Origin: Candidatus Bathyarchaeia archaeon
GTDB taxonomy: Archaea > Halobacteriota > Bog-38 > Methanoflorentales > Methanoflorentaceae
Assembly: GCA_035626195.1 (NCBI GenBank)
Contig: DASPOC010000113.1
Span: forward strand, 1 to 57,516
DNA length: 57,516 nucleotides
Direction: 5' to 3'
Shown: positions 3,135 through 18,216 of the stretch, in pieces
How the letters are laid out: every line of letters begins with the position of its first letter
Numbering within the stretch: position 1 is the stretch's first letter
The notes under the pieces: generated by a model
Told to the model about the DNA's origin: nothing
Seen by the model: the letters and a program-made list of their open reading frames with translations, nothing else
Databases searched by the model: none
Made by a program: the position numbers and the translations under genes

Positions 3135-3276
3135 TTCTTACGCGCCAGCATTCGAATTGCTTCTTTTGATTGGCCTAATATAAAACCATTTAACTCGGCT
3201 GCAGTTTTAATGCTTCTGGGCCTGAACGTGCAAACATGTTGCCATCGTGAACTCGATTTTTAGCCAGGGGTTTTTG

Positions 3277-3892
3277 CTATGTCGAAAGACTGGTATTGCT
3301 CCACCCGTCAGCGAACTTGAAATCATTCACGACGAGTATTCCAAAATCATATCTTGCAAGATTCTGCTTTTTGTAGACTACCGTAAAATGAACGATGCAT
3401 TTTGAGCATAAGGGCTCTTGCCAAAGATCCCCGTTCTTGTTTGCCGAACGCGTCGTTTCCGAGTCGTTTACTGAAGCTTTTTCCTCGGGGTCGTCCTGCG
3501 CGGTCAATGATTTCCTCCTCTGACCAATCGCTCAAATCATCGTCGCGTTCAAGAACCGCAAGTTGCTCCATAAGCTTATCAGATACCCAGACCCATCAGA
3601 ATCTATTTGGGCTATAAATTTCCCTTTTGCCGCTTCGATGGTCGTAACAGGATCTCAAGATGCCCAAATCGCTTCGTGAAATTACGCTAAGTCGCGCATC
3701 GTGCTTTGCATTGCGTTCGATAACCCGCTTCGCTGCGTCGGCCGAGACACCATTCACTATGACGAGTTCGAGGTATTCGAAATCCTGCCTTAAAGCACTC
3801 TCGATGGTCTCGCCGATGAACCGTTCGCTTCAGCGTTTGCGCACAAACGCTACGGCACGATTGTCCACCACTATGGCCCGCTTCTCACGCAT
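3277..3892 (-). pseudogene. Decayed GT2-family glycosyltransferase
   Basis: Reverse translation from ATG at 3892 gives MREKRAIVVDNRAVAFVRKR*SERFIGETIESALRQDFEYLELVIVNGVSADAAKRVIERNAKHDARLSVISRSDLGI, a GT-A N-terminal signature with an in-frame TGA. AKGKFIAQIDSDG and DKLMEQLAVLERDDDL follow in two other frames. Confidence 0.7.
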
Positions 3893-4535
3893 AGATTGCA
3901 ATCTGTATTACGTTGCCGCTCCTTGCGCTTCTATGATGTTGGAAATGCGACGCTTTCTTGGCTTAGCGGTATATGTTGTTTACAGCGACAAGGCAGAGGA
4001 TGTGCGCGACCAATAGTGTCAGGACAACGTCGAACTGCCATTCGGCTCAATGGTAAACTGTTGTAGCTGCTTCTACAGATACTTTTAGAGCGGGCGTTAG
4101 GCACTTTATTGCCCTTGCAGATGGTGCGATGGCCCTACACTGTGTCTCGAAACTCTTACGTCTTAAAGGTGAAGTTATAACGAGGTCGTTTGCTTTGCAG
4201 CAACGACGAATGCTATATTCTGAAAAATTCAGTGTCAGTTTTTCAGATCGTTGATCAATCGCTTTGTTTTCATTTTCTTGCTCATATGCGCGCCCGCCTC
4301 ATTCGGTGACACTTCGTGCCGTTGATGTCTCGCGGTGCGATACCACAGTTGCCCCATTTGAAGAGCGCAGCAAAAAGCACGTTGCGTGCAGAAAAATCTT
4401 TTTCGGGCATCGCTTAGACATTAATGAGCGCCTAAAAGGCTAACCGAAAGACACGGCACTTGCGAAGCGCATTTGAAAGTACACAATGCTGAAACTTTTA
4501 TAGTCTATTTTTTAAGCTACTTCAAATAAGCTGCG

Positions 4536-5987
4536 TTAATCAGAGCCCTTGTAAATATGATATATGAGTTTAGTCTCCTGGATCGTGAAACCCCGCAGCG
4601 CAAGCAAAATGGCAAAATAGATAACTGCGGCAAGTGCGATCGATACAACTATGCTGAAGAACCCAGAGGGATTCCATAAGAGCAGAAACAAGGCGATAAC
4701 ACCCGAGCCGCAAGCACTCTTCACAATGAATCTGCCGTTCACGTTAAACGTAAAGTATCTAAATGAATAGACTGTAATCAACACGAAAGCGAGCAGGAAG
4801 GCGAGGAAAGTAGTTATTGCAGCACCTACGACGCCTAAATACGGGATGAGTACTATATTCAGACCGAAATTCAATGCGGCACTGAGTATCCATATCGTGC
4901 CGATGATCGCAGTCTTCTTTTTTAATGCGAGTATCATGATAGTCACTGAGCACGCTCCAATGAGCGCAGTTCCCGCGGCAACAAACGGGGTGACTAAATA
5001 GCCGTTTGTCGCGATCTCCTGCGTGGTTAACACAAGCAAAATCGGTTTTGATAAGACGGATAAGGCAACCACGCACGGCAGGGCAATTCCGATATAGTAC
5101 TTCAGCGAGTACGTCATGATCGTGCGCACATCGGAAATCTGGTTCTCGTCGTAGTGTTTTGAAAGAATCGCGGGAAGCAGCGTCCCAAACGGTGCTGCGA
5201 CCATGGCGATGGTAGTTCCCGCGGTGTATCCTGGCGAATAATAGCCCACCGCTGCGGTACCTAAAAAAAAAGCAATGAGATAACGATCGCTTGAATTTAC
5301 GATCCAACTCGAAATACTCCCTGGGACTAATGGCACGCCATAATTGAGGTACTGCCTTACGTGCGTAAGCTTGGGGATAGCAAGCCCGATCTCAGCGACG
5401 ATGAGATACATCATAACGGAGAACACCACGAGCTGCTCGATTAAGAGCGCAATCACGGCGCCTTCCAATCCGTACCCTGAGAGGACAAAATAGGCAACGA
5501 GGGCCGTCTCCAAATACGCGTTAAAAAGGCTTAACCAAGTGTACCGTTTGATCTGCTGGAATGTCACAAAATATTGCAAAACAAAAGAGCTCAGGCAGGC
5601 GATTAACACGTTTGGCGCAAGCAGCAGGGCTGTGGTGAGATTGTTTTGAAACAAGCTTGCCGCTATTTGTGGCGCAAACAAAAGAAACAGCCCGGAAAGC
5701 GTCAAACTCACGACCAAAACGATGCAGCCCATAGAATAGAACAACTCTTGGATGTCGTGTTTGTTCGTCGCCGCGGCGCCAAACCGAACTATTGAACTTT
5801 GTAGCCCTAAAGCCGCAAGGGTGGGCAACAGGCCGAGCGTAATCAGAATCAAAGCAAAGGCACCATAATCAGCGATAACCAGGTTCCTTGTTAGGATAGG
5901 AAGCAGAATGATATTGCTCAGATAAACTAGAGGAGTTATTACTGCGCTCAATCCTATTCGCCGAACAGTGAGTGTGTATTTTCCCAT
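4536..5987 (-). CDS. Wzx-like oligosaccharide/polysaccharide flippase (MOP superfamily, Polysacc_synt type)
   Basis: 483 aa, hydrophobic throughout (about 12-14 TM segments). Typical N-terminus RRIGLSAVITPLVYLSNIILLPILTRNL..ADYGAFAL. Glycan-cluster context. Confidence 0.85.
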   Translation of the reverse strand: MGKYTLTVRRIGLSAVITPLVYLSNIILLPILTRNLVIADYGAFALILITLGLLPTLAALGLQSSIVRFGAAATNKHDIQELFYSMGCIVLVVSLTLSGLFLLFAPQIAASLFQNNLTTALLLAPNVLIACLSSFVLQYFVTFQQIKRYTWLSLFNAYLETALVAYFVLSGYGLEGAVIALLIEQLVVFSVMMYLIVAEIGLAIPKLTHVRQYLNYGVPLVPGSISSWIVNSSDRYLIAFFLGTAAVGYYSPGYTAGTTIAMVAAPFGTLLPAILSKHYDENQISDVRTIMTYSLKYYIGIALPCVVALSVLSKPILLVLTTQEIATNGYLVTPFVAAGTALIGACSVTIMILALKKKTAIIGTIWILSAALNFGLNIVLIPYLGVVGAAITTFLAFLLAFVLITVYSFRYFTFNVNGRFIVKSACGSGVIALFLLLWNPSGFFSIVVSIALAAVIYFAILLALRGFTIQETKLIYHIYKGSD

Positions 5988-6886
5988 TTACGTGGTTCTT
6001 CTGCGAATCTGCAGGACTGTTGCTCGGCCGTTTTTTTGATCTGTCGATGCCTTGTAACGCTAGCGCTCGGTCACAAAAACGGCAGACTTGACCTTTGATC
6101 CGCCTTAGCGTGGTTCTTTAATCGTCTTTTTTTCACTATTTGTCGCACTTCGCGGGAAGCCCTTTCAGAAAGGAATTCAGATAGCGCGACATTTATAGCT
6201 TCGTCACGAAATTCGTTGGCGCATTTGACTCTTCATTCTCATAACAGTCAATTTAACAAATACTCATTGGTTCAGTACTAACCTGGTGCCGAAACCTCTT
6301 CGTAAAAGGAACGGTCGGCGCCCTTTCCTATGAGCAATGGGATAGCACGCCGGCCTGGTCTGCGTCGACGTCGCTCGCCGGAGTTCTGACGTCAGGCTCC
6401 GCTGCCCCGTCTCAAGACACAAGGTGATCACCGTCTTTGTGCGCAGCAGCGACGGCACCCTTTGTCGAGGAGGCGCGAATGAGCGCGCCTCATAGAGCGC
6501 CTGGGCCTATCTCGCCGGGCAGATTGCTGTCGGCTCAGGCGACCGCGCCGATGATAATAAGCGGCTTTGCTTAGGGCTGCTCCGACGCCTGCGCCGAGGC
6601 CTACACCGACACCCTGGCCGCCGTAATGGCACATTAGGCGGGTCAATCGGCTTGCCTCTTTTTTTTGTCTTTGAGCGTATTAAGGCCGCTGCTCGACGAG
6701 GGAGTACTCCTTTATACCGCGTACATTACTGTTCATTATTCGATTCCCAGCGTTTGAAGGGCCCCGTTCACGACTCACGCGCAACTTAGTTATGGCGGCC
6801 ACGCGCAAACCGCAACCTTTATGGCTCTTCTTCTGCGTGTAGGGATGGAATCCTAGAGGTACTTTGCCACATTAAATTGTTTTCAC

Positions 6887-8620
6887 ATGTTCGCGGAAAA
6901 GATGAAACGTAAACGCACAGCGATCGGCGTTGCCTTAGTCACTCTGATGCTCGTCTCGCTTTTTGCTGTGGTTAGCAGTCAGGCGAGCGTGAGTGGCCGA
7001 GCGAGCGGAACGACTGCACCAGTTGCTACGAACCTGGTCGGCAGCACGATGACGGGCACCGGCCCCGCCGCGAGCACCTCGTTTACTACTGGAGAAGCCG
7101 AAATCTTTGCCGTCGACCCCAGTGGTACTCTCTGGAACACGTCGATAGGGCCAAGCGGTAACGGTACCTGGAACCCCCTCGGTGGCGCGAGCACCTCATC
7201 ACCTGCCGCCATCTCCATGAACTACAGCTACTTCAGCGTCGACGTTTTTGTGCGTGGCACTGACGGCGCCCTCTGGGAGAAGCACTATCAGAATGGCTGG
7301 TCCACCTGGATATCACTCGGCGGGCAACTTGCTGCAGGTACCGGCCCCGCGGTCGCTTCTTGGTCAGCAGGTCGTCTCGACGTCTTTGTAGATGGCACCG
7401 ACGGCGCCCTGTGGCATAAATGGTATAACGGCACATCGTGGTCTGGCTGGGAATCCCTCGGCGGGCAACTGACATCAGCACCCGCTGCGACTTCACCGGC
7501 CAGCGGTGCGATATACGTCTTTGCCCGCGGCACCGACGGCGCCATCTGGGAGAAGCCTTATAGCAACGGATGGTCTAGTTGGCGCTCTCTTGGCGGCCAG
7601 GTTGCTGCCGGCACAGGACCCGCCGTGAGCCAAGCCCTCTGGCTCTTTGTGCAAGGCACGGACCATCAGCTCTCGCGAATGCGTGTTGGGGGCGGTTCCG
7701 TCAAATCGACCGGCTTGGGCACCCTCGCCGGAGCGCCTCCCGAGGCGCTGTCCACCTCGTCACCGGGCGCCGTCGTCTCCACCACCGGCGAAACCCTGGT
7801 GTGCGTCAGCAGCGCCAGCGGGAAGGTCTGGTATTCCGGGGATAGTAATGCCAACTGGAATAACTGGGTGTCCGCTAGTAGCCCGCCCGTGATAATCCAC
7901 CGTCCCACACTGACGCAGGGCATCGCAAACGACGGTACGTACTACTACGGCATAAGCAACACCGCGCTATACAAGTACGACACGAACTGGAAACTCATTG
8001 CAACGAACGGCAATGCTGCGGCTCAATGCGGCGGCAACCATATGGGGTCTGGCAGTGCCTATAATGGTGTCCTCTATGTGCCTTGTACCGCAGATCCCCC
8101 AGCACAGGAGCTTGCACATGTGGGGCTGTTCAATACGAGCACCTTGAGCTTTATAAAGGCGGTTAATTTGGCCCACCTAGGATTCTTTGCACCGACTGCC
8201 GATCAAATAAATATAGCTGCCGTCACTGTTAACCCCGATGCTGGTCTCCTTGCAGCACTCTCATATGGCCCTTATGGTAGCACCGCTGCTGCAGGCGCTT
8301 CAGTATTTACATATAGTTTAACAACGTTCGCATACAAGGGCTCCTTTCAGGCGTCAAGCAACCCCACAATATACAATCAAGGCATCAGCTACTATAACGG
8401 CCACTATTATTACGCATATGACAACCCACCGGTCGGTTCAGCCTCATCAGTAAATGGCGGCGTCGCGATAATGAATACTGATGGAAGCAATGCGAAACAA
8501 ATAATCTCACCGTCTAGGATGATGGCTGGCGGCGGCACCGATGAGATAGAAGGCTTATGCATTACTAACGGCAATATTTACGTGCTCCGTGGCGACTACG
8601 TCTACATGTTCCCGACCTAG
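6887..8620 (+). CDS. Secreted protein with an N-terminal PLL/DUF346-type beta-propeller repeat domain (putative lectin) and an uncharacterised C-terminal domain
   Basis: Signal-peptide-like N-terminus KRKRTAIGVALVTLMLVSLFAVVSSQASVSG. About six ~45-50-aa repeats of the form DVF.RGTDGALW.K.Y.NGWS.W.SLGGQL...PA. The C-terminal ~240 aa are rich in Y/G/N. Confidence 0.85.
   Translation: MFAEKMKRKRTAIGVALVTLMLVSLFAVVSSQASVSGRASGTTAPVATNLVGSTMTGTGPAASTSFTTGEAEIFAVDPSGTLWNTSIGPSGNGTWNPLGGASTSSPAAISMNYSYFSVDVFVRGTDGALWEKHYQNGWSTWISLGGQLAAGTGPAVASWSAGRLDVFVDGTDGALWHKWYNGTSWSGWESLGGQLTSAPAATSPASGAIYVFARGTDGAIWEKPYSNGWSSWRSLGGQVAAGTGPAVSQALWLFVQGTDHQLSRMRVGGGSVKSTGLGTLAGAPPEALSTSSPGAVVSTTGETLVCVSSASGKVWYSGDSNANWNNWVSASSPPVIIHRPTLTQGIANDGTYYYGISNTALYKYDTNWKLIATNGNAAAQCGGNHMGSGSAYNGVLYVPCTADPPAQELAHVGLFNTSTLSFIKAVNLAHLGFFAPTADQINIAAVTVNPDAGLLAALSYGPYGSTAAAGASVFTYSLTTFAYKGSFQASSNPTIYNQGISYYNGHYYYAYDNPPVGSASSVNGGVAIMNTDGSNAKQIISPSRMMAGGGTDEIEGLCITNGNIYVLRGDYVYMFPT
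7094..7891 (+). repeat. Intragenic blade repeats (about 6 units of ~140-150 nt)
   Basis: The recurring nucleotide core ggcac(c/t)gacggcgcc(c/a)t(c/g)tgg sits near 7258, 7396 and 7528. Protein repeats are listed under the CDS. Confidence 0.8.
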
Positions 8621-8831
8621 GCCACGTGGGGGGACAAGGGAAGAGCGCGATTAAGATTTAGAGTTACAGAGCGCAACCGTATCGTGGTTATATGAAAAAA
8701 TGAACTGAACCGCGCCGCTCGCTTAAAGCGAGTTCGCATTATATCAACTGTGATCTCAATAAGGCAAACACATGCGGCGTGCTGCCCCTGCATGTATAAG
8801 GCCGGGGTTTAAAGCTGCATCTCCCCATCAG

Positions 8832-9630
8832 CTACACAACCAAGTCTTTCAAAACATCTGACAACACTTTTCGCTCAACAGATCCCATAGGAGAGGTATA
8901 TAAGTCCCACTCGGCCCGGACCCCTCCCTTTTCGTTCCACCTCAACAAACCCTTACAAGCCAACTCTGCTATCAATTCGGATAAGGTTTTATATGATGCA
9001 TGTTCTCGTCCATCAAAGCTTACGATAGTGTTAAATTCCTGACAAACTTGGGTCGGAGACTGCTCTTCCTCTTTACTGTAGACACAGCTTAGACCTTATG
9101 AGGAGGTGACAAACGGCCACTTCGCCGTGTCAAGGAGGCCTCAGGCAATCGCTGGGCCCGTCTCAGGTCGTCTTCTGTTACCGTGTTGTGACCCTCTTCC
9201 TGACAGTAATAAGCAGCAGTTGCAAGCAGATCCAGCGCATATCGGGCATCACCGTTTCGTTGGGCCGCAAGTGCGCCGCGCAAAAGAATAGTCTGCTTCA
9301 AGAGTGTTGGGATAAAAAAACGCCGTCTCGACACGGTATCTAGGATGGTCTTCAATTGGTTCGCATTATTGGTAGGGAAGGTCAACGTAATGTTCGGATG
9401 ACTGATCCGAGCGTTCGTGATCAACTCAGGAATGTCTATTTGTTGGTGATTCCGACACTGCAATTCCGAGCAAAGCATAAAATCAAGGGCGTGATCGCGT
9501 TCGCTGGAATTCTAAAACAGTAACTATTGCTTGGTCAAAATGCTTGTCGCGCCGTATCCAGGGAATTCGTTGTATAACGAATCATTACAGTGTTTTTTTA
9601 AGGTGCCACCAAAGCCGCTGTTGTGTACAA
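8832..9630 (-). pseudogene. orc1/cdc6 (archaeal replication initiator) remnant, 5'-truncated and frameshifted
   Basis: ORF 9089..9478 encodes ITLTFPTNNANQLKTILDTVSRR...RNGDARYALDLLATAAYYCQEEGHNTVTEDDLRRAQ, the AAA+ C-terminal part and lid with the GDAR.A.DLL signature. The winged-helix part EQSPTQVCQEFNTIVSFDGREHASYKTLSELIAELACKGLLRWNEKGGVRAEWDLY lies in another frame (about 9098 down to stop 8832-8834). Upstream sequence (9479-9630) has in-frame stops, and the N-terminal Walker A region is missing or unrecognisable. Confidence 0.75.
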
Positions 9631-9636
9631 CAGTCA

Positions 9637-10896
9637 TTAAAGCGATTTTTTGATCATATTATATACTCTTTCTGAGTTTTTACAATCTCGAAATTCATTA
9701 AAACGGTGGCAAATTTCCTTCCGTTGTGTTTTGTAGTCATCACATTGAAGATTGCGTTCCACAAACTCTAGGACCCCCTTCCAGTCTGTGGCTTTAGGGC
9801 CTGGCGTCACTTCATCATAGTCATAGAATAACTCTTGACCGTCCAAATCAACAAACTCGCGAAGATCAAAAGGAGCAAATATAATGGGCCGATCTAACAG
9901 CAAAAAATCAAAATAGACGCTCGAATAATCTGTAATCAGGAGATTGACACGTTTCAAAAGAGGATATATATCAGGCAATGCCGTGTCGGAAGGCGTAAAA
10001 ATTCTGCTTTTTTGGTTGCCATATTCTGGATGTAGCCCTATTTCAGCTCCTCGCTCATGCACTTTCATTATTAGAATTGCATTTATCCGGGTGAGCAATG
10101 CTTCTACTTCGTCAATATCGAATCCGTAATCAAAAAGCAGATCCCTCTTTTGGCCAATGTCTTGGCGCCGCCACGTTGGCAGGTAACAAATCACAAACGT
10201 AAAATCAACTATACGTTTTATATTCTCAAGATACGGGCAGTTATCATCGGACCACCATGCGTCTAGCAATACATCATTTCGTGGATATCCCGTAACAACT
10301 ACATTCATATTAGATCGAAAGGCTGGAAGTTCGTCGAAGGCGGATAACATCGTTTCTCTTGACTCTTGGGATGTCGCGATGGTAAGATCATAGTGTTCAG
10401 CCTCAAAGCCAAATATGCTAGCCATCAGGCTTCTCACGAACAGCCACAAACGAAGCGTGAGTTTATGATTCCTAAAGCGGTATTTACTGGTTACGAGCAG
10501 TTTCTTTAGTGGGGTGCCGTGCCAGAGTTGCACTACTTTTGCTCCTCTGATCAGGCTTCGATTGACGTCCCACAACGAAGTTGAAACGATTACGCATCCG
10601 GCCCGTAATGAGTGCAAAATACCCTCTAGGCTGCTCACGTGATACGCACAATATCCGTTCTCCCTCAGCATTTCGATGATATCTGTATTGCGCGATAACC
10701 AAACACAAGTAATATCGGGGTAGTTCTCTGTTACATAAAGAAAGAGGTATTTCGAATTATCTGCAAATTTCTGGCCGAGTGGGGACCCAAAAATCCATAT
10801 ATTTGGATCTTTATGGAAAAATCCTGAAGCAAAATACTCAATGTTGAAAGTAACGTTAGCAAGAGTGTGCTTGAGTTTCAAGTAACACTTATTCAT
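9637..10896 (-). CDS. CDP-glycerol/ribitol glycerophosphotransferase family protein (TagB/TagF-like)
   Basis: Motifs [19 protein letters not shown] and [30 protein letters not shown] are typical of the Glyphos_transf family. 419 aa. Confidence 0.85.
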
Positions 10897-11679
10897 AATT
10901 CCAAAAAAGATGCATTGGGCGGAGGTCTAATCGGCATCGAGCGCCTCTTTTGACGTTCTGCACCGGACGTTACGCTGTCCTTTCTATCAAACTTCGCCAT
11001 CTGTTGGATACACGGCCACGTCCCATCATAGTCAAATCGATGCGATCGCAAGGCCAATTTGTTAATAAAGCTTTCGCATATAGTCTGCGCACGCTCTGTG
11101 CGCTCCTGGTAGCGGCTTTCTCATAGGCGGCACTCCACAACAATCGCGTGACAATCGTTACTCTCGGGTGCTTGTTTGGTCATTTTTGAGCCTGAGGCCT
11201 TTTCAGCAAGAAATAATGGATCAAATGGTAATTTCATTTTTTTGCTCATTAGAGCAGCCGAATTCACAGGTTGCCTTTTTTCGTTTTTCCATATAATGGT
11301 TATGATCTCAGTTCTCACGCACAAACTACTGCTCATATTCGTTCTTGTTGTAAAGCCACGTTCGACGGTTTGAATCGAAATTTGGCGAAAGGATCCAACT
11401 CTTCGCGAATTGCTGCTCGGAAGATAAACATATCGGCGGTCGGTTGATCCCGCCGGTGCAGCCAGGTACTGATGCGAGCGAGGCATGCAAAAATACCGGA
11501 GCATAATAGCTAAATTCGCGCGTGTGACAGCGCTATACTTCTCGAGGGTATTGTTGCATCAATCGTCGGAAAAGAGCAGCTATCAAGAGTAGAGTTTGCT
11601 TTGATTAGACTCCTAACGCGCTTTCGCGAGGCTTCACGATCATTTGCCCGCATCTTGCTGGTTTGATGCAAGGCGCACC

Positions 11680-12708
11680 TCATTCAAGAATGCACCGACA
11701 GAATTCTTCAACGCACCCATAAGGCCATTCGTTTCTGAGGTTCGATACGAGGCACTTCACGTAGGCATCCAACGTTTTTTTCGCGCATATTTCGCTTTTC
11801 ATGGCGGATTTGATGAACAGCACACAGAGCGAATATACAAACGCGGTCGCAAATTGCCATCTTGACAAGCTCTCCGTGACAAAATAGAGCCATGAAAAGG
11901 TCAGCAAGTATCTATTCTTCGAGCAGCACTGCTTACCGTGACTGGGATGGATCACGTAACCTAAATGTTCTGGACGAACCTTGTTGATAACCGCACCAAG
12001 CTTTGATTCGTCTCTCGGTCTAAGTGGGGACTCTTGCAACGCTTTTTTGAGCCGAAGGTCTGGGTGTCGGACTTCGGCTGCGTCGACCGCTATAATGGCA
12101 ATTTTCGCGGGCAGCGCGCGACGCGCGTAATCATAATCTTCCAAACCGACGAAGAAATGACAAGCGTCATAATATCCGATCAAGTCCATAACTTTCTTTG
12201 AAATGAGAACTCCGTGTGTGCCAAAAGCGTCTATCTGGGACATGTCCGCACTCAAACGAACGGGACGCAGATGTCCAAAAAAGTTTTTCTTCAGCCTTTC
12301 GCGCGTAAAAACCACCCAAGGCCGGTCTATATCGACCTTTTTGGGACAAAGAATGTCACCGTCATCAGCGTGCTTCAGCAACTCGGTTAGACAGAGATCT
12401 GATGCAACCCCATCCTGATCTACGGGCCATAGCCAATCGAAACCATTCTCATGGGCAACTTTCATACCGTGGTGAAAGCCGCCGGCAGAGCCCGCGTTGC
12501 TTTTGGTTTGGTGGTAATAGGTAAAGGGGTACTGTCTAGAGTGCGTGTCGAATACTTTTTTGTTTTCTGCTAAGTATCTATGATCTGAGTTATCGATAAC
12601 GATGAGCCCACGTAAAGCCGGCCCTTGATTCGTGAGTGACGAGAGCAGACGCGCAAGTTCTTTTGGTTCGTTGTAGGCGACTGTTGCTGCGCAAACCTGC
12701 ACTGTCAT
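11680..12708 (-). CDS. GT2-family glycosyltransferase (rhamnosyltransferase-like) with a hydrophobic C-terminal tail
   Basis: VCAATVAYNEPKELARLLSSL...LIVIDNSD...NAGSAGGFHHGMKVAHENGFDWLWPVDQDG. Confidence 0.85.
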   Translation of the reverse strand: MTVQVCAATVAYNEPKELARLLSSLTNQGPALRGLIVIDNSDHRYLAENKKVFDTHSRQYPFTYYHQTKSNAGSAGGFHHGMKVAHENGFDWLWPVDQDGVASDLCLTELLKHADDGDILCPKKVDIDRPWVVFTRERLKKNFFGHLRPVRLSADMSQIDAFGTHGVLISKKVMDLIGYYDACHFFVGLEDYDYARRALPAKIAIIAVDAAEVRHPDLRLKKALQESPLRPRDESKLGAVINKVRPEHLGYVIHPSHGKQCCSKNRYLLTFSWLYFVTESLSRWQFATAFVYSLCVLFIKSAMKSEICAKKTLDAYVKCLVSNLRNEWPYGCVEEFCRCILE

Positions 12709-12857
12709 TTTCGAATCGTAGATTTAATTGTGCGATTTATAACTGTTCGTTCTCGCCGATGACCTTTGTTGACGCGGCCGCCTCGTAGCTGCTATCCTCG
12801 ACTAAATGCTGTGCATAGTCCGGTCATAAAGACGCCATTTGATGTTGCACAATGGGT

Positions 12858-13979
12858 CTAATCTGCATTTAAGGACTCTTTTGACGTTCTGCAGCGCGCG
12901 TTACAGTGCGCCTTTTGACACACGGCGTCTGCTATTTTTTCTGCCATTAATCTCGCCGTCGTTAGCTTTCCCCCAATAATATGGAACATGTTGCTCGGAT
13001 CCTCGATCACCTTAAAATCACGAGACTTCAAGCGTCCGTCTGCGTCGTGCCGACCCAACTCGACCGCGCCGTGATCGCCGTCTGCGAGTGCCCTTACACC
13101 AGTGAACATGCGCAGCGTAGGGCGGCGCTTTACATTTGGAAGGATGTGAGCGAATTCATTTTTTAGATACGTGTCAGCCCAAGGTTCAGGATGTGCGTCT
13201 TCCGGTCTCTGGATTGTTGTCGAAGTTGTGCCTAGCCAGCCATACCCGTTGTGTACAATGTACGCGTCTGCATCCGACGGCTCGCGCAAATGCTGGATAC
13301 CTCGTGAGCAGAGCGCCTTTTGAACGATAATGGTTCCTTGGCTGTAGGTTAATGGAATGGTCGCGTCAACGATACTCGCTACGGTATTTACCCACGGGCC
13401 GGTTGCGTTAATTACGTAGTTGGCCTTCAATTTGCCTAAGCTGGTAGATATTACGAATTCCTGTTCAGCTTTGTGTATCGACCGAAGCTCTTGGTTCTCG
13501 AACAGACTCCCTCCATTTTGCTTTGCAGAATAACAGTTCAGCCAACAAAATCGCTGCGCGTTTATGTTTTTATCGGCCGTTTCCACAGCAACGTTTAGAT
13601 CTCTGTTTAATTCAGGAATCTCCTTCAATACTTCATGAATATCAACTTCTTTCGCTTGAATGTGTAGCTTTTTGGCTGCCTGCAACGCAGATAGTGCGTA
13701 TTCGCTAGTCACCCCGACGAAGTAGTTCAGCACATCTCCGACCACTTCTGAAGCGATATCAGAAATGATTTCGTTCTCTTTGGCGCATTCTTGCGCAACT
13801 ACTGGATCTTTCAAAACGTACCGCATCCCGCCCAGTAAGTTTTGATGGGAAGACGAAGTCGTGCCGCTCGCTATAGTTCGTTTTTCGATGAGGGCCACTG
13901 AGAAGCCCCTCATTGATAAATCTCGAAAAGTGGCGGTGCCTGTCGCCCCGCCACCAAATATAACTACTTCATATCTCAT
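12858..13979 (-). CDS. FAD-dependent oxidoreductase, glycerol-3-phosphate dehydrogenase (GlpA/GlpD)-like
   Basis: MRYEVVIFGGGATGTATFRDLSMRGFSVALIEKR...GTTSSSHQNLLGGMRY. I prefer the start at 13979 (MRYEV). The listed ORF runs to 14018, and that extension overlaps the upstream gene. Confidence 0.8.
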   Translation of the reverse strand: MRYEVVIFGGGATGTATFRDLSMRGFSVALIEKRTIASGTTSSSHQNLLGGMRYVLKDPVVAQECAKENEIISDIASEVVGDVLNYFVGVTSEYALSALQAAKKLHIQAKEVDIHEVLKEIPELNRDLNVAVETADKNINAQRFCWLNCYSAKQNGGSLFENQELRSIHKAEQEFVISTSLGKLKANYVINATGPWVNTVASIVDATIPLTYSQGTIIVQKALCSRGIQHLREPSDADAYIVHNGYGWLGTTSTTIQRPEDAHPEPWADTYLKNEFAHILPNVKRRPTLRMFTGVRALADGDHGAVELGRHDADGRLKSRDFKVIEDPSNMFHIIGGKLTTARLMAEKIADAVCQKAHCNARCRTSKESLNAD

Positions 13980-14712
13980 GCGTTCCGTGCTCGAGCTGTG
14001 TGATTCTTTGGCGAACAAGTCGTGCTTGAATTAGATCATCATACGTGTCTATTTCACAGCGGAGCATCCCATCTGTATGAAGGACGTGCACTGCGGAGGG
14101 AAATTTAAGTAGAAGTCTATTCAGCGGTTCGGAATACCATTCGAGTTTTGCTCTTGGCTTTTTCAGCGCTTGCTTGAATTCGTTTAAGAGCTCATTACTC
14201 ATCTTAATCATACTCGTATACACGGTGTTGCCTGGAACTGACTTACCAATGCTCGCGGCGGAACCATTTTTTACCAGGACCTTGCAATCTTCAGGTTCTA
14301 TTTTTTTTCCATTTTCGACTACACAGGCGTTGTCGTGCGGTGACTGGACCAATCTTCTCAGTAACTCAAATTCAAACAATATATCGCCATCCAGGACGAG
14401 GACAGCGTCTACAGCGGGATCGACGTGTTCCAAGGCAAGTGACAAGCTATATGCATTGTCGGTTTCATAAAACAATTTGTTATCGACGATAGTGACCGGC
14501 AGATTATAGTCTGACTCCTTTATGTGCTTCTGTATCAAACCACGCTTATAACCTGCAACAACCAGGGCGCATTTGATCTCCAGTTTTGCCAAACGCCGCA
14601 TCTGATAATCGAGGATGGTTTCATCATTGAGGCATAACAAGCATTTAGGCACCTCTTCGGTCAGTGGCCGAAGTCTGGTTGACCTACCGGCTGCGAGAAT
14701 TATCGCTTTCAT
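13969..14712 (-). CDS. LicC-type nucleotidyltransferase (probable CDP-alcohol-forming cytidylyltransferase)
   Basis: MKAIILAAGRSTRLRPLTEEVPKCLL, plus DNKLFYETDNAYSLSLAL resembling LicC-family NDKY..NN.YSL. Preferred start is 14712 (the ORF track extends to 14736). It overlaps the downstream dehydrogenase gene by 11 nt. Confidence 0.75.
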   Translation of the reverse strand: MKAIILAAGRSTRLRPLTEEVPKCLLCLNDETILDYQMRRLAKLEIKCALVVAGYKRGLIQKHIKESDYNLPVTIVDNKLFYETDNAYSLSLALEHVDPAVDAVLVLDGDILFEFELLRRLVQSPHDNACVVENGKKIEPEDCKVLVKNGSAASIGKSVPGNTVYTSMIKMSNELLNEFKQALKKPRAKLEWYSEPLNRLLLKFPSAVHVLHTDGMLRCEIDTYDDLIQARLVRQRITQLEHGTHEI

Positions 14713-15193
14713 CCTCTGCCCACCCTTATCTCTCATTGGTCACCGGCTGTTTTTTAAGGTCGTTAACAACTCAAGATATTCAGCGTCTTCTACTCATAGG
14801 GGTAAATTATTGCCACATAAATAGCTACAGACAAAGTGACTACTATAATCACGTCTCGAGTCTAGTGCTCTCTGTGACTTAAGTTACAAAAAGACCGGCT
14901 AATAAAACTTGTGCTATACTTTTCATCGTTGCTCATGTCAAGCGCCTATTCTGTGCGCGAAAAAATGACGTCTACAGTCCAATCAGCCCCATTACTCATG
15001 TGAGGACCGCTGAGCTAATGTAACTAATCACGCTATACAAACGAGCTCACGTCTCGCTACAACTTTGGGGGACAAAGTGGACATGGTCTCCAATCCTGAG
15101 ATCTTTCATCAAATATGAATTTAAGGGATAGAAAGTAAGCGAATAAAAACGCTTCTTCACGTCAATAACGAAACGCACCTTGCTGATCTAGTT

Positions 15194-16459
15194 TCATACC
15201 GCATATTCGCCGCCGCCGTAGTATCTATTAAAAAGAGCATCATAAACATCGATATTTTTCTTCGCGACGTTGTGCCAATGGTAGTAGTTTTTCGCGCGTT
15301 CTCTGTTTGCACGAAACGGTGCACCGTCCTCAAGAACCTTGACTACTGCGCTTGCAATTGCATTGGAATCCCTGGGCGGGATCAGCACTCCTGCTTCAAA
15401 CTGCTCGACCAGACTCGGTATCCCTTCGACGTTGGTTCCGATAAACGGTGTTCCGCACGCCATTGCTTCGATCCCCACAACCCCTAGTCCTTCAATCAGA
15501 GACGGGAGAACAAACACATCTGCTGCGTTATAGTAAAGTGGCAATTTCTCATCGGGAACCCTGGGTTCAGAATCTGTAGCTGGAATGAAATGAATCTTGT
15601 CCTGAATGTGTAGCTTCTGGGCCAAAAGTTGAAGGTGATTTTTATAGTATCCTTCTCCAACCAAAAGCAGTTCGGTATCGGGCAGCCTCTCGCGTATAGG
15701 TAGCATGGACCGAATCAGATAGCCCAACCCCTTCCTCTCGACCATCCCCGCGACGCATAATACGTACTTTTTGTTGGAATCTAACCCTAAGTCGTCTCTT
15801 GCTCCGTTCTTGTCGAGTCTCCTATACACAGAGAAATCGATCCCCATTGTCGAGATGTGGACTTTTTCTGCTCCAGCCAAGCGTGAAAAGTATCTTTCAG
15901 TAGGCTTATTGAGAACAAGGAAACAGTCGACGCGTTTTTTTAAGGCTCTTTCGAAAAAGAATCCTTTTAACAAGTAAGACGCTAAATAGTTGTATCTCAC
16001 CCGTTCTGGAGTTTCCAAAAAGAGCTGCAAGAGCGATCTATCTTCGTGGCATTGAACTAATATCGGAGTTTTCTTGATGAAGATAGATGCAAAAACAGTT
16101 GTCCAAGTGAACGCCGAGTGCAAGTGCACAAGCGAATTCTGTTTTTTCACTTCGATGCGCAATTCTCGCAATAATGGCCAAGAAATCTCTCCGAGGTTGA
16201 TTCGATCGGATCCCACGTATTGTGCGGGGAAGAATCGATAAAGTACGTCGCCCTCCTTCGTTGCAAATTCTTTCTCTAACTGGTTTTCGATGCTCCAACA
16301 CTCTAGGTCATATCTGTCCGTGCTCTTTGCAATCTGCTGAGCGAGTCGAACGTGCCACCCGCCGCCATAAGGAAGTTCGTTAATCTCTTCTTTTGCTCGA
16401 AAGTCGGGTAAAAAAGAAGAAAACGAATGCGTATTGGCTAATATAACTTTTTCTTTCAT
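15194..16459 (-). CDS. GT4-family (GT-B) glycosyltransferase
   Basis: C-terminal signature ADVFVLPSLIEGLGVVGIEAMACGTPFIGTNVEGIPSLV. Confidence 0.9.
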   Translation of the reverse strand: MKEKVILANTHSFSSFLPDFRAKEEINELPYGGGWHVRLAQQIAKSTDRYDLECWSIENQLEKEFATKEGDVLYRFFPAQYVGSDRINLGEISWPLLRELRIEVKKQNSLVHLHSAFTWTTVFASIFIKKTPILVQCHEDRSLLQLFLETPERVRYNYLASYLLKGFFFERALKKRVDCFLVLNKPTERYFSRLAGAEKVHISTMGIDFSVYRRLDKNGARDDLGLDSNKKYVLCVAGMVERKGLGYLIRSMLPIRERLPDTELLLVGEGYYKNHLQLLAQKLHIQDKIHFIPATDSEPRVPDEKLPLYYNAADVFVLPSLIEGLGVVGIEAMACGTPFIGTNVEGIPSLVEQFEAGVLIPPRDSNAIASAVVKVLEDGAPFRANRERAKNYYHWHNVAKKNIDVYDALFNRYYGGGEYAV

Positions 16460-16504
16460 CGCCGTGCACTCCGCTCGAGTGACGAAGCGTCCCTGCTCTT
16501 TTGA

Positions 16505-17593
16505 CTATAGGATGGAATCGTATGCGTTTATGGTATTTTGAACGGTTGTTTCCCAGCTAAATCTATGTGCTCGTGTAGAGCCCTTGGATCGTAAACTTTC
16601 ACGCAAACTCTCATCGGTTGTTATATCGAGAATCTTTCCTGAGATGTCTGCCGAGTTCAGCGGATCGTCTATGTATAGTCCTGCATCTCCCGCAACTTCT
16701 CTCAGCGAACTGTTGTCTGAGAGCACGACCGGAGCGTTGCACGCCATGGCTTCAAGAGGTGGCAGTCCAAACCCTTCATAAAGTGATGGGAAGATCAAAG
16801 CAGTCGCTGCGCCATAAATTCGTGGCAAGTCTTCGTACGCTACGTATCCGAGCACTTTTATTCTTCTTTGCGCTTCCTTTTTGACGTGACTGGGAAGGTC
16901 GCTCGAATTAATGTAACCTCGTATCTTGTTCTCGTTAATCGGTCCAATAAGCACCAAATCGTCAGATATTTCTTGAAAAACGCTCACGTACGCGCTAATC
17001 AGGGTTTTTAGGTTCTTTCGCGGACCGTCGTCGCCAACGCAGAGCAAATAACTACGTCGAAGGTTATATTTGCGCGTAACTTGACTGCAGTCGCTCTGAG
17101 GATGAAAAAAAGACGTGTCGACCCCTAAATGGATAACTGTAAGCTTCTCTTTGCGAACTCCAAATTTTGCGATCAAATCTGTCATCGTAGAGTAGCTGTC
17201 TACTATGATTAAATCACAGTTTTCGATCAGCCTTGGGAGTACGATCGCAAAATCAAACCGTAGTATGCGATCGGGCACGACTCGCGTGTAGTATTCCGGC
17301 AGCATAACCGGCGCAATATCGTGAACGGTGAGCACCTTTTTTGCTGGAAGGTTCCGGTGTCGAAAGAGAAACGGTCCGAGGTTATCCACATTATGTATGA
17401 GAGAGGTCGACTCATTCGTTATCAGATGCTTCAATAGCAGACTGCCCAAGAAAACTCTTGCGTTTGGGCGGTTTAATGCAAAATGGTGCAACACCTTCAC
17501 ATCAATGTCTCGCGCTCGCAAGCCTCGTATCAGGTGTCTGTTTAGCGCCCACTCCCCAGTTTTGGTTGTCGGTGGTATTATAGCTACTCTCAT
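16505..17593 (-). CDS. GT4-family (GT-B) glycosyltransferase
   Basis: ALIFPSLYEGFGLPPLEAMACNAPVVLSDNSSLREVAGDAG. Confidence 0.9.
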   Translation of the reverse strand: MRVAIIPPTTKTGEWALNRHLIRGLRARDIDVKVLHHFALNRPNARVFLGSLLLKHLITNESTSLIHNVDNLGPFLFRHRNLPAKKVLTVHDIAPVMLPEYYTRVVPDRILRFDFAIVLPRLIENCDLIIVDSYSTMTDLIAKFGVRKEKLTVIHLGVDTSFFHPQSDCSQVTRKYNLRRSYLLCVGDDGPRKNLKTLISAYVSVFQEISDDLVLIGPINENKIRGYINSSDLPSHVKKEAQRRIKVLGYVAYEDLPRIYGAATALIFPSLYEGFGLPPLEAMACNAPVVLSDNSSLREVAGDAGLYIDDPLNSADISGKILDITTDESLRESLRSKGSTRAHRFSWETTVQNTINAYDSIL

Positions 17594-18216
17594 AACGCGC
17601 CTAATTCACTATCACACCGTGCTGCCCCCATATTAAAATTGTTTTGTTGGGATCGGCGTAAACGAAGGTGACGGCTCCTCTGACAATGGGCACTGCGACG
17701 CGCACCCTGCGTCAGATAACGCGAACCGGTCGGTTTGTCCAATCGCGCACGTCCGCAGCTCTTTAAGATCCTTCGCGATGAGCGACTGGGACTCTTTCGC
17801 ACGCAGTTCGCCAACCTGCCCGCGCAGTGTTTCGCCGCCTGACATACACATAAAATTGCTTTCCACTTTTGCATATCTGCCGGTCAGCATACATCCTATC
17901 GCAGACAACGACCTTTTGATGGGCTGCAGTTAGCGGTCTCGCCCTCCAACAAAAGCGGGTTAGGCTTACCAAAAACCGTGCCCGCTTTGGGCGATCGCCG
18001 CGACGAAACTCACGCTCAAGTAGAGTAATCGGGATGTTTGCGATTGGCTGGCGCTTGGGACGCTGAATGTGCGTGTCGGTTGCATATCAAGCAGTTGCAC
18101 ATAGCAGACAGTAAACCGTGCTACCGCTGTGTTTAACGCTCACATGTGCGAGCAAAACCGGAAGCCTTATAGCTTCTTTCTACATCGTCCGCGTTATAAA
18201 CGGTTAGGCGACTATC

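Follow-up and report, generated by a model that had tools for sequence, protein, structure and literature searches.

The window, i.e. the whole analysed stretch of 57,516 nucleotides, comes from an uncultured archaeon, a peat methanogen, represented by a 'Halobacteriota' MAG, with the Stordalen isolate bog_38 among its closest relatives. The minus strand carries the four co-directional genes described in the earlier note. ORF translation recovered all four, together with the motifs quoted for them (a 24-residue stretch continuing to ...PIIF, VVIFGGGATG and MKAIILAAGRSTRLRPLT). They are listed here with three further genes of the same strand:

4536..5987, minus strand: Wzx-type (Polysacc_synt) flippase (PF01943, 84.1 bits)
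9637..10896, minus strand: CDP-polyol phosphotransferase of the TagF/TagB family, 419 aa, consisting of the catalytic domain alone (PF04464)
11680..12708, minus strand: GT2 glycosyltransferase, 342 aa, separating the TagF-like gene from the cassette (PF00535)
12858..13979, minus strand: short GlpA-like FAD oxidoreductase of 373 aa that lacks the BFD [2Fe-2S] C-terminal domain (PF01266, TIGR03377)
13969..14736, minus strand: LicC-type (phospho-alcohol) nucleotidyltransferase, 255 aa (PF12804, PF00483)
15194..16459, minus strand: GT4 glycosyltransferase, upstream of the cassette (PF00534, 126.4 bits)
16505..17593, minus strand: second GT4 glycosyltransferase, first gene of the co-directional run (PF00534, 87.9 bits; PF13439, 47.6 bits)

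The ORF of the oxidoreductase, below called the flavoenzyme, extends over 12858-14018 and gives 386 aa from a TTG. Its real start is ATG 13979 (373 aa), as homologues likewise begin MRYEVV. With this start, the stop of the nucleotidyltransferase gene overlaps the start of the flavoenzyme gene by 11 nt (13969-13979), the figure given previously.

All four genes sit in a glycan island of approximately 39 kb that also encodes a Wzx-like flippase and numerous glycosyltransferases; the nucleotidyltransferase and flavoenzyme genes are together called the cassette. Relatives whose DNA is approximately 89-91% identical show the same gene order. The GT2 gene (PF00535, 53.7 bits; weak GlfT1-like match) keeps this place in closer relatives only, and is a member of the local glycan pathway outside the conserved core. 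The position of the first GT4 gene is conserved in loci L014, L015 and L037-L047, the synteny of the second is conserved in relatives, and Wzx homologues occur close to the cassette in L001-L004, L012, L014, L016, L045, L048-L050, L053 and L055. All genes are covered by peat metatranscriptome contigs from strains 90-95% identical. One 3.3-kb peat RNA contig (12674-15969) joins the GT2 5' end with the flavoenzyme, nucleotidyltransferase and GT4 genes, and the GT4 gene at 15194..16459 is probably co-transcribed with the cassette.

The HMM scores of the locus proteins place the family assignments far beyond chance. The TagF-like protein, assigned earlier to the TagB/TagF family, belongs to Glyphos_transf and matches PF04464 with 189.1 bits (cut-off 22.1) over profile positions 10-366 of 367, and aligns with Staphylococcus epidermidis TagF (3L7I) with 78.7 bits. 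Both catalytic histidines, which we take to be H444/H584 in TagF numbering, are kept: H126 sits in WHGTPLK, a motif identical in TagF, and H280 aligns with the single residue separating 3L7I (His) from 3L7M (Ala). Among curated models TarF is best and is matched over the full length, with 108.6 bits against a cut-off of 550, followed by TarL (53.5 against 1000) and TarB (18.5 against 500). A homologue (P0326), 43% identical in the TagF-like domain, is fused to a glycerol-3-phosphate cytidylyltransferase domain which is genuinely TagD-type (TIGR01518, 185.9 bits, exceeding the cut-off of 165.4). This fusion indicates CDP-glycerol as the donor for the TagF-like subfamily.

The nucleotidyltransferase scores 58.9 bits with PF12804 and 54.8 bits with PF00483. 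When its family profile was searched against PDB sequences, LicC (1JYK) was the best match, with a full-length alignment scoring 105.6 bits. PntC, a phosphonate cytidylyltransferase, came second (80.3 bits, also full length) and a mannose-1-phosphate guanylyltransferase third (75.0 bits, partial match); GlmU and RmlA reached at most 48.5 bits. The only full-length matches among solved structures were LicC, PntC, 4JD0 and IPCT. On sequence, the enzyme is thus LicC-type and not RmlA/GlmU-like, as the earlier note had it; the fold search alone leaves it unseparated from the sugar-1-phosphate enzymes RmlA and MurU (AF2 model, pLDDT 92.7). It reaches no curated NCBIfam cut-off, and its best, sub-cut-off matches there are the N-terminal halves of sugar-1-phosphate enzymes (archaeal GlmU-type, AglF). 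Identity to any solved member is approximately 20-25% at most. One LicC Trp, which may take part in choline binding, is replaced at the aligned position by a conserved EDxK motif. We propose that the enzyme may be a CTP:glycerol-phosphate cytidylyltransferase.

The flavoenzyme is a GlpA/GlpD relative, in agreement with the earlier description. It matches DAO (PF01266, 111.6 bits) and GlpA (TIGR03377, 272.9 bits, profile positions 1-376 of 530), and its AF2 model (pLDDT 89.5) finds GlpD, including the DHAP complex, as best fold match (TMq 0.83). The Fe-S C-terminus of GlpA (BFD [2Fe-2S]) is absent, and there is no C-terminal extension. The phosphate-binding residues of GlpD are kept: R54/Y55, R317, R332 and K354 correspond to R53/Y54, R296, R320 and K338, all invariant in the clade. 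This clade is small and distinct, with members of 345-384 aa scoring 393-604 bits against at most 314 bits for all else; beyond it, scores fall sharply to GlpA proteins of approximately 530 aa. We propose that it may be a DHAP/glycerol-phosphate oxidoreductase, which would supply the nucleotidyltransferase.

Conservation of the neighbourhood was surveyed across genomes, using flavoenzyme lineages dereplicated at 90% identity (23 lineages, 21 of them evaluable for the upstream gene). In 21/21 evaluable lineages, the gene immediately upstream of the flavoenzyme gene codes for a LicC-type nucleotidyltransferase, and the two overlap or stand a few nt apart. The hosts include Thorarchaeota as well as MAGs of peat methanogens, of one Methanophagales member and of one Anaerolinea member. 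The surrounding glycosyltransferases vary while this adjacency holds; the pair is a fixed two-gene cassette. It is also associated with two unrelated families of CDP-alcohol-using enzymes: 12 lineages have a TagF-like gene in the flank, 4 have a CDP-alcohol phosphotransferase gene directly downstream, and 7 have no consumer gene inside the available flank. None of 39 canonical GlpA loci (approximately 500 aa) has a LicC-type nucleotidyltransferase, a TagF-like gene or a CDP-alcohol phosphotransferase as neighbour. This strict conservation beside CDP-alcohol users is the new observation made here. It strengthens the suggestion of a non-canonical substrate supply, which had been drawn from the unusual coupling of a LicC-like activator with an FAD dehydrogenase.

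Two other arrangements bear on the division of labour. In CPR bacteria, the LicC-type nucleotidyltransferase is present without the flavoenzyme and is paired instead with a phosphoglycerate-mutase-like His_Phos_1 protein; bacteria already have G3P, which would fit. The Anaerolinea MAG (L023) carries the cassette although a bacterium should need no extra G3P source, which counts against reading the flavoenzyme as a G3P supplier. At another locus (P0182), the flavoenzyme gene has no LicC-type nucleotidyltransferase gene alongside; instead, it runs at its end into the first gene of a CDP-OH_P_transf pair, with which it overlaps, and a CDP-archaeol synthase gene is adjacent on the opposite strand. 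This fits a flavoenzyme supplying a small glycerol-phosphate substrate rather than editing the product of the nucleotidyltransferase.

The explanation we favour, with a confidence somewhat above even, is that the cassette makes CDP-glycerol and that the TagF-like enzyme attaches glycerol phosphate to a cell-surface glycan. The flavoenzyme would interconvert dihydroxyacetone phosphate and glycerol phosphate, most plausibly running from DHAP to sn-glycerol-3-phosphate, an enantiomer not supplied by the archaeal lipid pathway. FAD-dependent GlpA, GlpD and GlpO are known as oxidative enzymes and no reductant partner is encoded nearby, so that a reductive reaction has to be assumed on thermodynamic and physiological grounds. 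From glycerol phosphate and CTP the nucleotidyltransferase would form CDP-glycerol. The neighbouring GT4 and GT2 enzymes would build a lipid-linked oligosaccharide, to which the TagF-like enzyme would transfer glycerol phosphate at the cytoplasmic membrane face, and the Wzx-type flippase would export the finished lipid-linked product. The end product would be a glycan with phosphodiester-linked glycerol. A decoration or short chain appears likelier than a long teichoic-acid polymer, given the Wzx-type flippase and the lack of TagO, TagA and TagGH counterparts in the window. The earlier proposal of a phosphodiester-linked polyol on a surface glycan is thereby supported, through the family assignments and the conserved cassette. 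What we infer within it is that the polyol is glycerol and the nucleotide CTP, what the acceptor is and how long the chain, and in which direction and with which stereochemistry the flavoenzyme works. According to a review, typical G3P-forming enzymes are missing from some archaea, and the glycerol-phosphate enantiomer of the archaetidylglycerol headgroup is given as unknown (PMC9385802). We found no glycerol-phosphate-containing archaeal glycan documented in the literature searched; the proposed pathway, if true, would represent a surface-glycan chemistry so far not shown in archaea.

The flavoenzyme may also act after activation, oxidising the C2 hydroxyl of CDP-glycerol, or of already transferred glycerol phosphate, to a keto (dihydroxyacetone-phosphate) moiety, or inverting sn-1 to sn-3 by re-reduction, with archaeal sn-glycerol-1-phosphate as the true nucleotidyltransferase substrate. 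The nucleotidyltransferase always precedes the flavoenzyme with overlapping or abutting reading frames, the loss of the whole C-terminal domain of GlpA could make room in the active site for a larger, nucleotide-linked substrate, and the abundant G1P is the form of glycerol phosphate whose synthesis is known from archaea. A partially purified cytidylyltransferase activity of A. fulgidus indeed prefers G1P (PMC8262930). We nevertheless regard this as unlikely, as the flavoenzyme keeps all residues gripping a free phosphate monoester in GlpD, and at P0182 it adjoins a CDP-archaeol synthase and headgroup transferases with no LicC-type enzyme. Furthermore, we know of no flavin-dependent CDP-polyol oxidase or epimerase. 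Rather improbable, too, is that the cassette activates another phospho-alcohol (glycerol-2-phosphate, inositol-1-phosphate, another polyol phosphate, phosphoethanolamine, phosphocholine or a phosphonate), which the flavoenzyme would prepare or modify. The closest solved relatives do use phosphocholine (LicC), 2-aminoethylphosphonate (PntC) and inositol-1-phosphate (IPCT), and Streptococcus pneumoniae Gtp2, the maker of CDP-2-glycerol, is probably also LicC-like. Distant bacterial homologues (29-34% identical) adjoin CDP-OH_P_transf genes, as in CDP-inositol lipid pathways, and the CPR His_Phos_1 partner could be a phosphomutase or phosphatase. Against these stand the partner, specifically a relative of GlpA whose phosphate site of the G3P/DHAP type is intact, and the consumers, since characterised TagF-family enzymes take CDP-glycerol or CDP-ribitol and a genuine G3P cytidylyltransferase domain is fused to a close TagF-like homologue. 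The window encodes no inositol-phosphate synthase, choline or ethanolamine kinase, LicD or PEP mutase, and the EDxK motif at the LicC Trp position argues weakly in the same direction.

The genes could finally be mere neighbours, with the nucleotidyltransferase making an NDP-sugar for nearby glycosyltransferases, the flavoenzyme being a catabolic G3P dehydrogenase, and the TagF-like enzyme using CDP-glycerol from an unlinked TagD-type enzyme. The sub-cut-off GlmU-type and AglF scores would agree with this, as would public annotations, which are generic ('choline kinase', 'glycerol-3-phosphate dehydrogenase', 'NTP transferase domain-containing protein'). We consider it highly improbable, because the pair is invariably adjacent over distant archaeal phyla amid variable glycosyltransferases, two unrelated CDP-alcohol-specific families co-localise with it, and the full-length matches of the nucleotidyltransferase family profile among solved structures are confined to the four named above. 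The locus also carries no glpK, glpF, glpB/C, CoxG or Sdh-type partner, unlike every archaeal G3P dehydrogenase synteny class in PMC11962113; a quinone-linked partner and glycerol kinase are likewise absent from the window.

The favoured pathway, CDP-glycerol synthesis for a glycan decoration, resembles several known systems in part. With TagF, TagB, TarF and TagF-like capsule polymerases, the 419-aa protein shares the complete catalytic domain with its two catalytic histidines; it differs in its archaeal host, in scores far under the equivalog cut-offs, in a window without TagO, TagA, TagD or TagGH counterparts and in the proposed export by a Wzx-type flippase. The nucleotidyltransferase shares with LicC, PntC and IPCT the N-terminal GxGxRL...PK nucleotide-binding motif, a full-length alignment and the predicted fold, but differs in the proposed glycerol-phosphate substrate and the non-conserved LicC Trp position; none of the three has a flavoenzyme partner, whereas the archaeal enzyme has an obligatory one. 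TagD/TarD (PF01467, HxGH family), the canonical CDP-glycerol synthase, makes what is also the proposed product here, likewise feeding a TagF-family enzyme. Its fold and family are unrelated and no window protein matches PF01467, so that the likeness is one of functional replacement and not of homology. For the archaeal cytidylyltransferase activity that prefers G1P, PMC8262930 reports that no gene has been assigned so far.

GlpA, GlpD, GlpO and the truncated Sulfolobus GlpA-CoxG share the DAO fold, FAD motif and phosphate-binding residues with the flavoenzyme, which however lacks a GlpB/C, CoxG, Sdh or NOX/MOX partner and would have an anabolic role. The synteny classes listed for archaeal G3P dehydrogenases in a 2025 survey (PMC11962113) include none linked to a cytidylyltransferase. 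Compared with TarI/TarJ and Gtp1-3, the redox partner here is an FAD GlpA homologue and not an NAD(P)H alcohol dehydrogenase, there is no kinase, and the nucleotidyltransferase is not IspD-type. TarI/TarJ (CDP-ribitol) and pneumococcal Gtp1-3 (CDP-2-glycerol) have a redox enzyme and a cytidylyltransferase side by side, feeding a polyol-phosphate transferase; by analogy, TarJ reduces ribulose-5-phosphate, after which TarI cytidylylates ribitol-5-phosphate. The cassette would follow the same order within a glycan cluster, making the polyol phosphate and then cytidylylating it (for the gtp genes and wchX of the pneumococcal comparison, see PMC1391919).

The four minus-strand genes at 9637-14736 had been read in the earlier note as a teichoic-acid-like polyol-phosphate module. 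All four were recovered as open reading frames in a check of the window, and every peptide motif quoted for them was found in the translations. HMM assignment, also suggested in that note, gave an unambiguous result, with PF04464, PF00535, PF01266 and PF12804 together with PF00483 each on the expected gene:

9637-10896, minus strand: TagF-like enzyme, 419 aa, PF04464
11680-12708, minus strand: GT2 glycosyltransferase, 342 aa, PF00535 (53.7 bits)
12858-14018, minus strand: short GlpA-like flavoenzyme, 386 aa as an ORF from TTG, 373 aa from ATG 13979, PF01266
13969-14736, minus strand: LicC-type nucleotidyltransferase, 255 aa, PF12804 and PF00483

Homologues of the oxidoreductase start with MRY..., so that its true start is ATG 13979 (373 aa), and with this start the overlap of 11 nt with the stop of the upstream nucleotidyltransferase gene is exact. 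The flavoenzyme and nucleotidyltransferase genes are together referred to as the cassette.

The nearest public locus found in a genome scan is a MAG contig of Euryarchaeota archaeon MFD03726.bin.3.148 (transferase 96% identical at the protein level), followed by a MAG contig of Methanobacteriota archaeon isolate bog_38 (89%), which presumably belongs to the Methanoflorens / Rice Cluster II peat methanogens. The window proteins are deposited under a 'Halobacteriota archaeon' MAG with generic names only, and matching DNA comes chiefly from peat, wetland and soil metagenomes. Domain scans of the window place the module within a glycan region of about 39 kb, which encodes a Wzx-type flippase, a methyltransferase, at least six GT4 and at least four GT2 proteins, a GDP-mannose 4,6-dehydratase, two DUF2334 deacetylase-like proteins and two DUF2206 membrane proteins. 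Past 40 kb housekeeping genes are found (hisD, a class II aminoacyl-tRNA synthetase, SMC-ScpA-ScpB and tRNA-Glu), and the window is chromosomal DNA. The module lies inside a stretch at 2-18 kb with 45-49% G+C, most other DNA of the window having 53-60%; within this stretch the part at 6-8 kb has 57.5%. The low G+C content at 2000-18000 suggests, on composition, a horizontally exchanged or hypervariable glycan island.

Several further features of the region were recorded. On the opposite strand, in the 57.5% G+C part, 6887-8620 (plus strand) encodes a predicted secreted protein of 577 aa with DUF346 repeats. A segment of about 840 bp at 8787-9628, bordering the TagF-like gene on its 3' side, holds an ORF at 9089-9478 (minus strand) for a 129-aa Orc1/Cdc6 fragment consisting of the AAA+ lid domain only (PF22703, 53 bits). 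This segment is missing in a comparison locus of about 90% identical DNA (L014), in which only 7 nt separate the counterparts of window positions 9629 and 8786; it is an indel and possibly the remnant of an integrated element. The spacer between the GT2 and TagF-like genes (10897-11679, 783 nt) has a sole ORF at 11121-11504 (127 aa), judged to be spurious. In one peat RNA contig 10953-11229 is replaced by 277 unrelated letters, and the spacer thus varies among strains. The large DUF2206 membrane proteins at 25887-28190 and 31978-34332 (both plus strand) are candidate glycan polymerases or transferases of an uncharacterised type; a DUF2206 gene likewise lies beside the cassette of Methanophagales (L012, 10122-12314). 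The glycan region is closed by a 399-aa ORF without Pfam match at 699-1898 (minus strand), which may, judged from its context, encode a divergent glycosyltransferase-like protein.

The TagF-like protein belongs to the Glyphos_transf family, as had been claimed: PF04464 gives 189.1 bits against a cut-off of 22.1, and residues 28-416 align to positions 10-366 of 367, nearly the whole profile. It aligns end to end with the catalytic domain of S. epidermidis TagF (3L7I, 78.7 bits). In the alignment to 3L7I and 3L7M, His126 sits in WHGTPLK, which is identical in TagF, and His280 matches the sole residue that differs between 3L7I (His) and 3L7M (Ala). By this alignment His126 and His280 are taken to be the catalytic pair corresponding to the TagF histidines, for which we assume the numbering H444 (in WHGTPLK) and H584. 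Compared with TagF, the window protein lacks the N-terminal region of about 310 aa, and in length it resembles TarF or TagB. Scores with the equivalog models of TarF (108.6 vs 550 bits), TarL (53.5 vs 1000 bits) and TarB (18.5 vs 500 bits) are far below the cut-offs, which makes the protein a member of the family without orthology to an enzyme of known function. The donor used by characterised enzymes of the TagF family is CDP-glycerol or CDP-ribitol. Among 5,820 homologues one, the metagenomic protein P0326 (551 aa), carries an N-terminal TIGR01518 glycerol-3-phosphate cytidylyltransferase domain (185.9 bits, cut-off 165.4), and its TagF-like domain is 43% identical to that of the window. Such a fusion suggests that this TagF-like subfamily takes CDP-glycerol as its donor.

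The nucleotidyltransferase matches PF12804 with 58.9 bits and PF00483 with 54.8 bits, and the N-terminal G-x-G-x-R-L ... P-K motif is invariant throughout its family (AAGRSTRLRPLT..PK). In a single-sequence search no curated NCBIfam cut-off was reached, and the top NCBIfam matches were the N-terminal halves of sugar-1-phosphate enzymes. The AF2 model has the expected fold (pLDDT 92.7). Since phospho-alcohol and sugar-1-phosphate enzymes were not told apart by a Foldseek search with this model, a sequence profile built from 16 family members was used to place the protein among solved structures. The best match was LicC (105.6 bits, full length), followed by the phosphonate cytidylyltransferase PntC (80.3 bits, full length) and a mannose-1-phosphate guanylyltransferase (75.0 bits, partial, the N-terminal 176 positions only). 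The inositol-1-phosphate cytidylyltransferases of T. maritima (4JD0, 72.5 bits) and A. fulgidus (IPCT, 69.5 bits) matched over their full length, GlmU scored 48.5 bits and RmlA at most 35 bits. The LicC-type assignment made from the sequence thus stands, and by the profile the protein does not cluster with RmlA or GlmU. In a region where the alignment is weak, the position of a LicC Trp, possibly one of the aromatic choline cage, is taken by an EDxK motif conserved in the family. No module protein matched PF01467 (HxGH) or TIGR01518, while the model does detect the domain in P0326.

PF01266 (DAO) gives 111.6 bits on the flavoenzyme. The TIGR03377 model of GlpA gives 272.9 bits against an equivalog cut-off of 552.8, matching profile positions 1-376 of 530 only; unlike GlpA, the protein stops at position 376 and is without the C-terminal BFD-like [2Fe-2S] domain. 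A homologue search found a tight clade of such short proteins, 345-384 aa long and 41-95% identical to the window flavoenzyme (300-795 bits), whose named members are from Halobacteriota, Woesearchaeota and Methanomassiliicoccales. Below the clade the scores drop sharply to canonical GlpA of about 530 aa, which is about 33% identical and has the BFD [2Fe-2S] domain; PF04324 is missing throughout the clade and present in canonical GlpA matches. Within 1.84 billion representatives the clade makes up a handful of 50%-identity clusters (393-604 bits), all others scoring at most 314 bits, and no fusion of the transferase with the flavoenzyme was found in the same set. R53/Y54, R296, R320 and K338 are invariant in the clade and align with R54/Y55, R317, R332 and K354 of E. 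coli GlpD, so the residues that hold the substrate phosphate in GlpD are all kept. The AF2 model (pLDDT 89.5) has its best fold match in GlpD, including the DHAP complex, with a query-normalised TM-score of 0.83. His233 from the catalytic region of GlpD was tried as a discriminator and rejected: it is missing in the clade, but canonical GlpA likewise lacks it. One metagenome contig (L003, 8702-9885) has the flavoenzyme gene broken into two overlapping ORFs, either by a frameshift or by an assembly error.

Conservation of the neighbourhood was surveyed along the lines suggested in the earlier note. Loci were gathered by exact-protein look-ups, a genome scan and a metagenome scan, and annotated by phmmer against the window proteins. 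For the genome scan the narrower transferase alignment A2 was used, as the broader A1 was too diverse, together with two peptide patterns, which means that distant members are undercounted. Dereplication of the flavoenzymes at 90% identity resulted in 23 lineages, 21 of them with the upstream flank available. The pair is kept in 21/21 evaluable lineages, the transferase gene being directly upstream of the flavoenzyme gene on the same strand, overlapping or a few nucleotides off. In 12 lineages the flank includes a TagF-like gene, with varying place and orientation and from different TagF-like subgroups. A CDP-alcohol phosphotransferase gene (PF01066) directly follows the flavoenzyme gene in four, one of which is a Methanophagales (ANME-1) MAG. 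In total a CDP-alcohol consumer (TagF-like or CDP-OH_P_transf) adjoins in 16/23 lineages, and from this adjacency we infer that the transferase uses CTP together with a phospho-alcohol. None of 39 loci of canonical GlpA relatives (about 500 aa) has transferase, TagF-like or PF01066 neighbours. The cassette is carried by peat methanogen MAGs, Methanophagales, Thorarchaeota and one Anaerolinea MAG. The flavoenzyme operons of the compared lineages contain no glpB/glpC or other electron-transfer or anchor partner; in every lineage the neighbours are instead the cytidylyltransferase and glycan or lipid-headgroup transferases.

Each cassette gene also occurs without the other. Loci of CPR bacteria (Paceibacterota and Saccharibacteria; L009, L019-L022) have a transferase 47-49% identical, with a His_Phos_1 protein and without the flavoenzyme. 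The His_Phos_1 partner is phosphoglycerate-mutase-like, and its gene overlaps the transferase gene in the Paceibacterota loci; no glycan or lipid genes are present in these neighbourhoods, which leave the pairing unexplained. Conversely, P0182, a clade flavoenzyme (48% identical) on a 248-kb archaeal contig (JGI 3300072015), has no LicC-type neighbour. The end of its gene overlaps the first of two CDP-alcohol phosphotransferase genes, a PHP phosphoesterase gene then follows, and a CDP-archaeol synthase gene adjoins on the opposite strand. This locus looks like a lipid-headgroup (perhaps archaetidylglycerol) operon with its own glycerol-phosphate supply.

Because two unrelated families beside the cassette both use CDP-alcohols, the cassette product is very probably a CDP-alcohol. 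The GlpA-type partner with its intact G3P/DHAP-type phosphate site, the TagD-type fusion and the donor range of characterised TagF-family enzymes point to glycerol as the alcohol. The P0182 flavoenzyme is found beside CDP-archaeol-dependent headgroup enzymes without a LicC-type protein, which argues that the flavoenzyme acts on a free small molecule and not on the transferase product; most likely it is a supply enzyme. For their lipids archaea make sn-glycerol-1-phosphate, and DHAP is a central metabolite. With sn-glycerol-1-phosphate and DHAP already at hand, the only GlpA-type reaction that would add something new is that from DHAP to sn-glycerol-3-phosphate. The flavoenzyme would thus reduce DHAP to sn-glycerol-3-phosphate, the transferase would form CDP-glycerol from glycerol phosphate and CTP, and the TagF-like enzyme would transfer glycerol phosphate onto a lipid-linked oligosaccharide before flipping by the Wzx-type flippase (4536-5987, minus strand). 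A role in G3P supply would also explain why the flavoenzyme is missing beside the transferase in CPR bacteria. The Wzx-type flippase, the lack of an ABC exporter in the window and the surrounding glycosyltransferases indicate that the lipid-linked oligosaccharide before flipping is probably the site of transfer, which speaks for a short chain or a decoration and against a long poly(glycerol phosphate). The reductive direction is the weakest of the mechanism steps: GlpA, GlpD and GlpO are known to work oxidatively, and the neighbouring genes include none for a reductant partner.

Taken as a whole, we put forward only tentatively, as one possible account, a previously unrecognised archaeal glycerol-phosphate/CDP-glycerol route, in which the GlpA-like protein is the missing anabolic source of sn-G3P in archaea without GpsA/GlpK and the LicC-type protein represents the long-sought glycerol-phosphate cytidylyltransferase family. 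The flavoenzyme could instead take CDP-glycerol or the already transferred unit as its substrate, oxidising it or inverting it between sn-1 and sn-3, the transferase then using G1P. Gene order and the missing C-terminal domain are compatible with this, but the context of P0182 and the conserved phosphate-monoester site speak against it, and we regard it as rather unlikely. Activation of some other compound of this kind (glycerol-2-phosphate, inositol phosphate, choline or a phosphonate) in place of glycerol-1- or 3-phosphate is somewhat more doubtful still. Solved structures related to the transferase and the His_Phos_1 pairing in CPR would allow it; against it stand the GlpA-type partner, the fusion with a TagD-type domain and the lack of the companion genes that it would need. 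Synteny in 21/21 lineages over several phyla makes it very improbable that the module genes are merely neighbours without functional relation. The window encodes no ABC exporter, TagD-type enzyme, LicD, choline kinase, PEP mutase, glycerol kinase or GlpB/C; a LicC-like choline or PntC-like phosphonate pathway had been considered as a candidate and is less likely, as PEP mutase, LicD and choline kinase are among these.

Among peat metatranscriptome contigs there are matches of 90-95% identity for the genes of the TagF-like enzyme, GT2, the flavoenzyme, the transferase and GT4. One RNA contig of 3.3 kb corresponds to window 12674-15969, from the 5' end of the GT2 gene through the flavoenzyme and transferase genes into the upstream GT4 gene (15194-16459, minus strand). 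This fits co-transcription of these four genes, with DNA carry-over into the libraries being possible. A scan for sigma-70 promoters and terminators gave the same counts as shuffled sequence, the sigma-70 model being unsuited to an archaeon.

The 'lipid divide' that sets archaea apart from bacteria turns on the stereochemistry of glycerol phosphate. The glycerol-phosphate enantiomer used for archaeal headgroups has been called open, as has the source of G3P in the many archaea without a recognised, typical G3P-forming enzyme (PMC9385802). An archaeal glycerol-phosphate cytidylyltransferase activity, forming CDP-glycerol, prefers Gro1P, and its gene was described as unidentified (PMC8262930). 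TagF homologues, phosphate-rich walls and, by inference, unidentified glycopolymers were described in the M. ruminantium genome paper (PMC2812497), and neither teichoic nor phosphodiester-linked glycans come up in a broad review of how archaea build their cell surface (PMC6098224). Archaeal TagF homologues have so far been noted as annotations only. Already known are the single families, under generic names from public pipelines. What is new is a conserved cassette of a LicC-type transferase and a C-terminally truncated GlpA-like flavoenzyme, systematically tied to CDP-alcohol consumers.

The cassette provides clonable candidates for both steps, G3P formation and CDP-glycerol formation, and makes two long-standing questions directly testable. 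It predicts a class of archaeal surface glycans with phosphodiester-linked glycerol. If the proposed route is true, some archaea deliberately make the opposite enantiomer of glycerol phosphate to build their wall glycans and the headgroups of their lipids, and archaea without pseudomurein have teichoic-like glycoconjugates with glycerol phosphate. The carriers are abundant peat and wetland archaea, the closest named relatives being methanogen MAGs, and their envelope chemistry bears on phage and predator recognition and on the reading of peat organic phosphorus.

Compared with the wall teichoic acid pathway (TagO-TagA-TagB-TagD-TagF-TagGH), the window has a Wzx-type flippase and no ABC exporter TagGH. 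Pfam scans of its large ORFs, covering the window only, found none of the companions TagA, TagD and TagGH, with zero matches to PF01467 and zero ABC transporters, the exporter being the Wzx-type flippase; the CTP_transf_like HxGH domain of TagD/TarD is absent from the module. A 2025 survey of archaeal G3P dehydrogenases distinguished the synteny classes GlpABC, GlpA-SdhBCD, GlpA-CoxG, GlpD, GlpO and GlpTk-NOX-MOX (PMC11962113). None of these fits, and a cytidylyltransferase-linked class without C-terminal extension is not among them. With the pneumococcal Gtp1/2/3 proteins (CDP-2-glycerol) the analogy is functional only, and the best 120 flavoenzyme homologues, most of them without source name, include no entry named Streptococcus. 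The proposed route would follow the same order of logic as TarJ and TarI, reduction and then cytidylylation: TarJ reduces a ketose phosphate, and TarI then cytidylylates the polyol phosphate.
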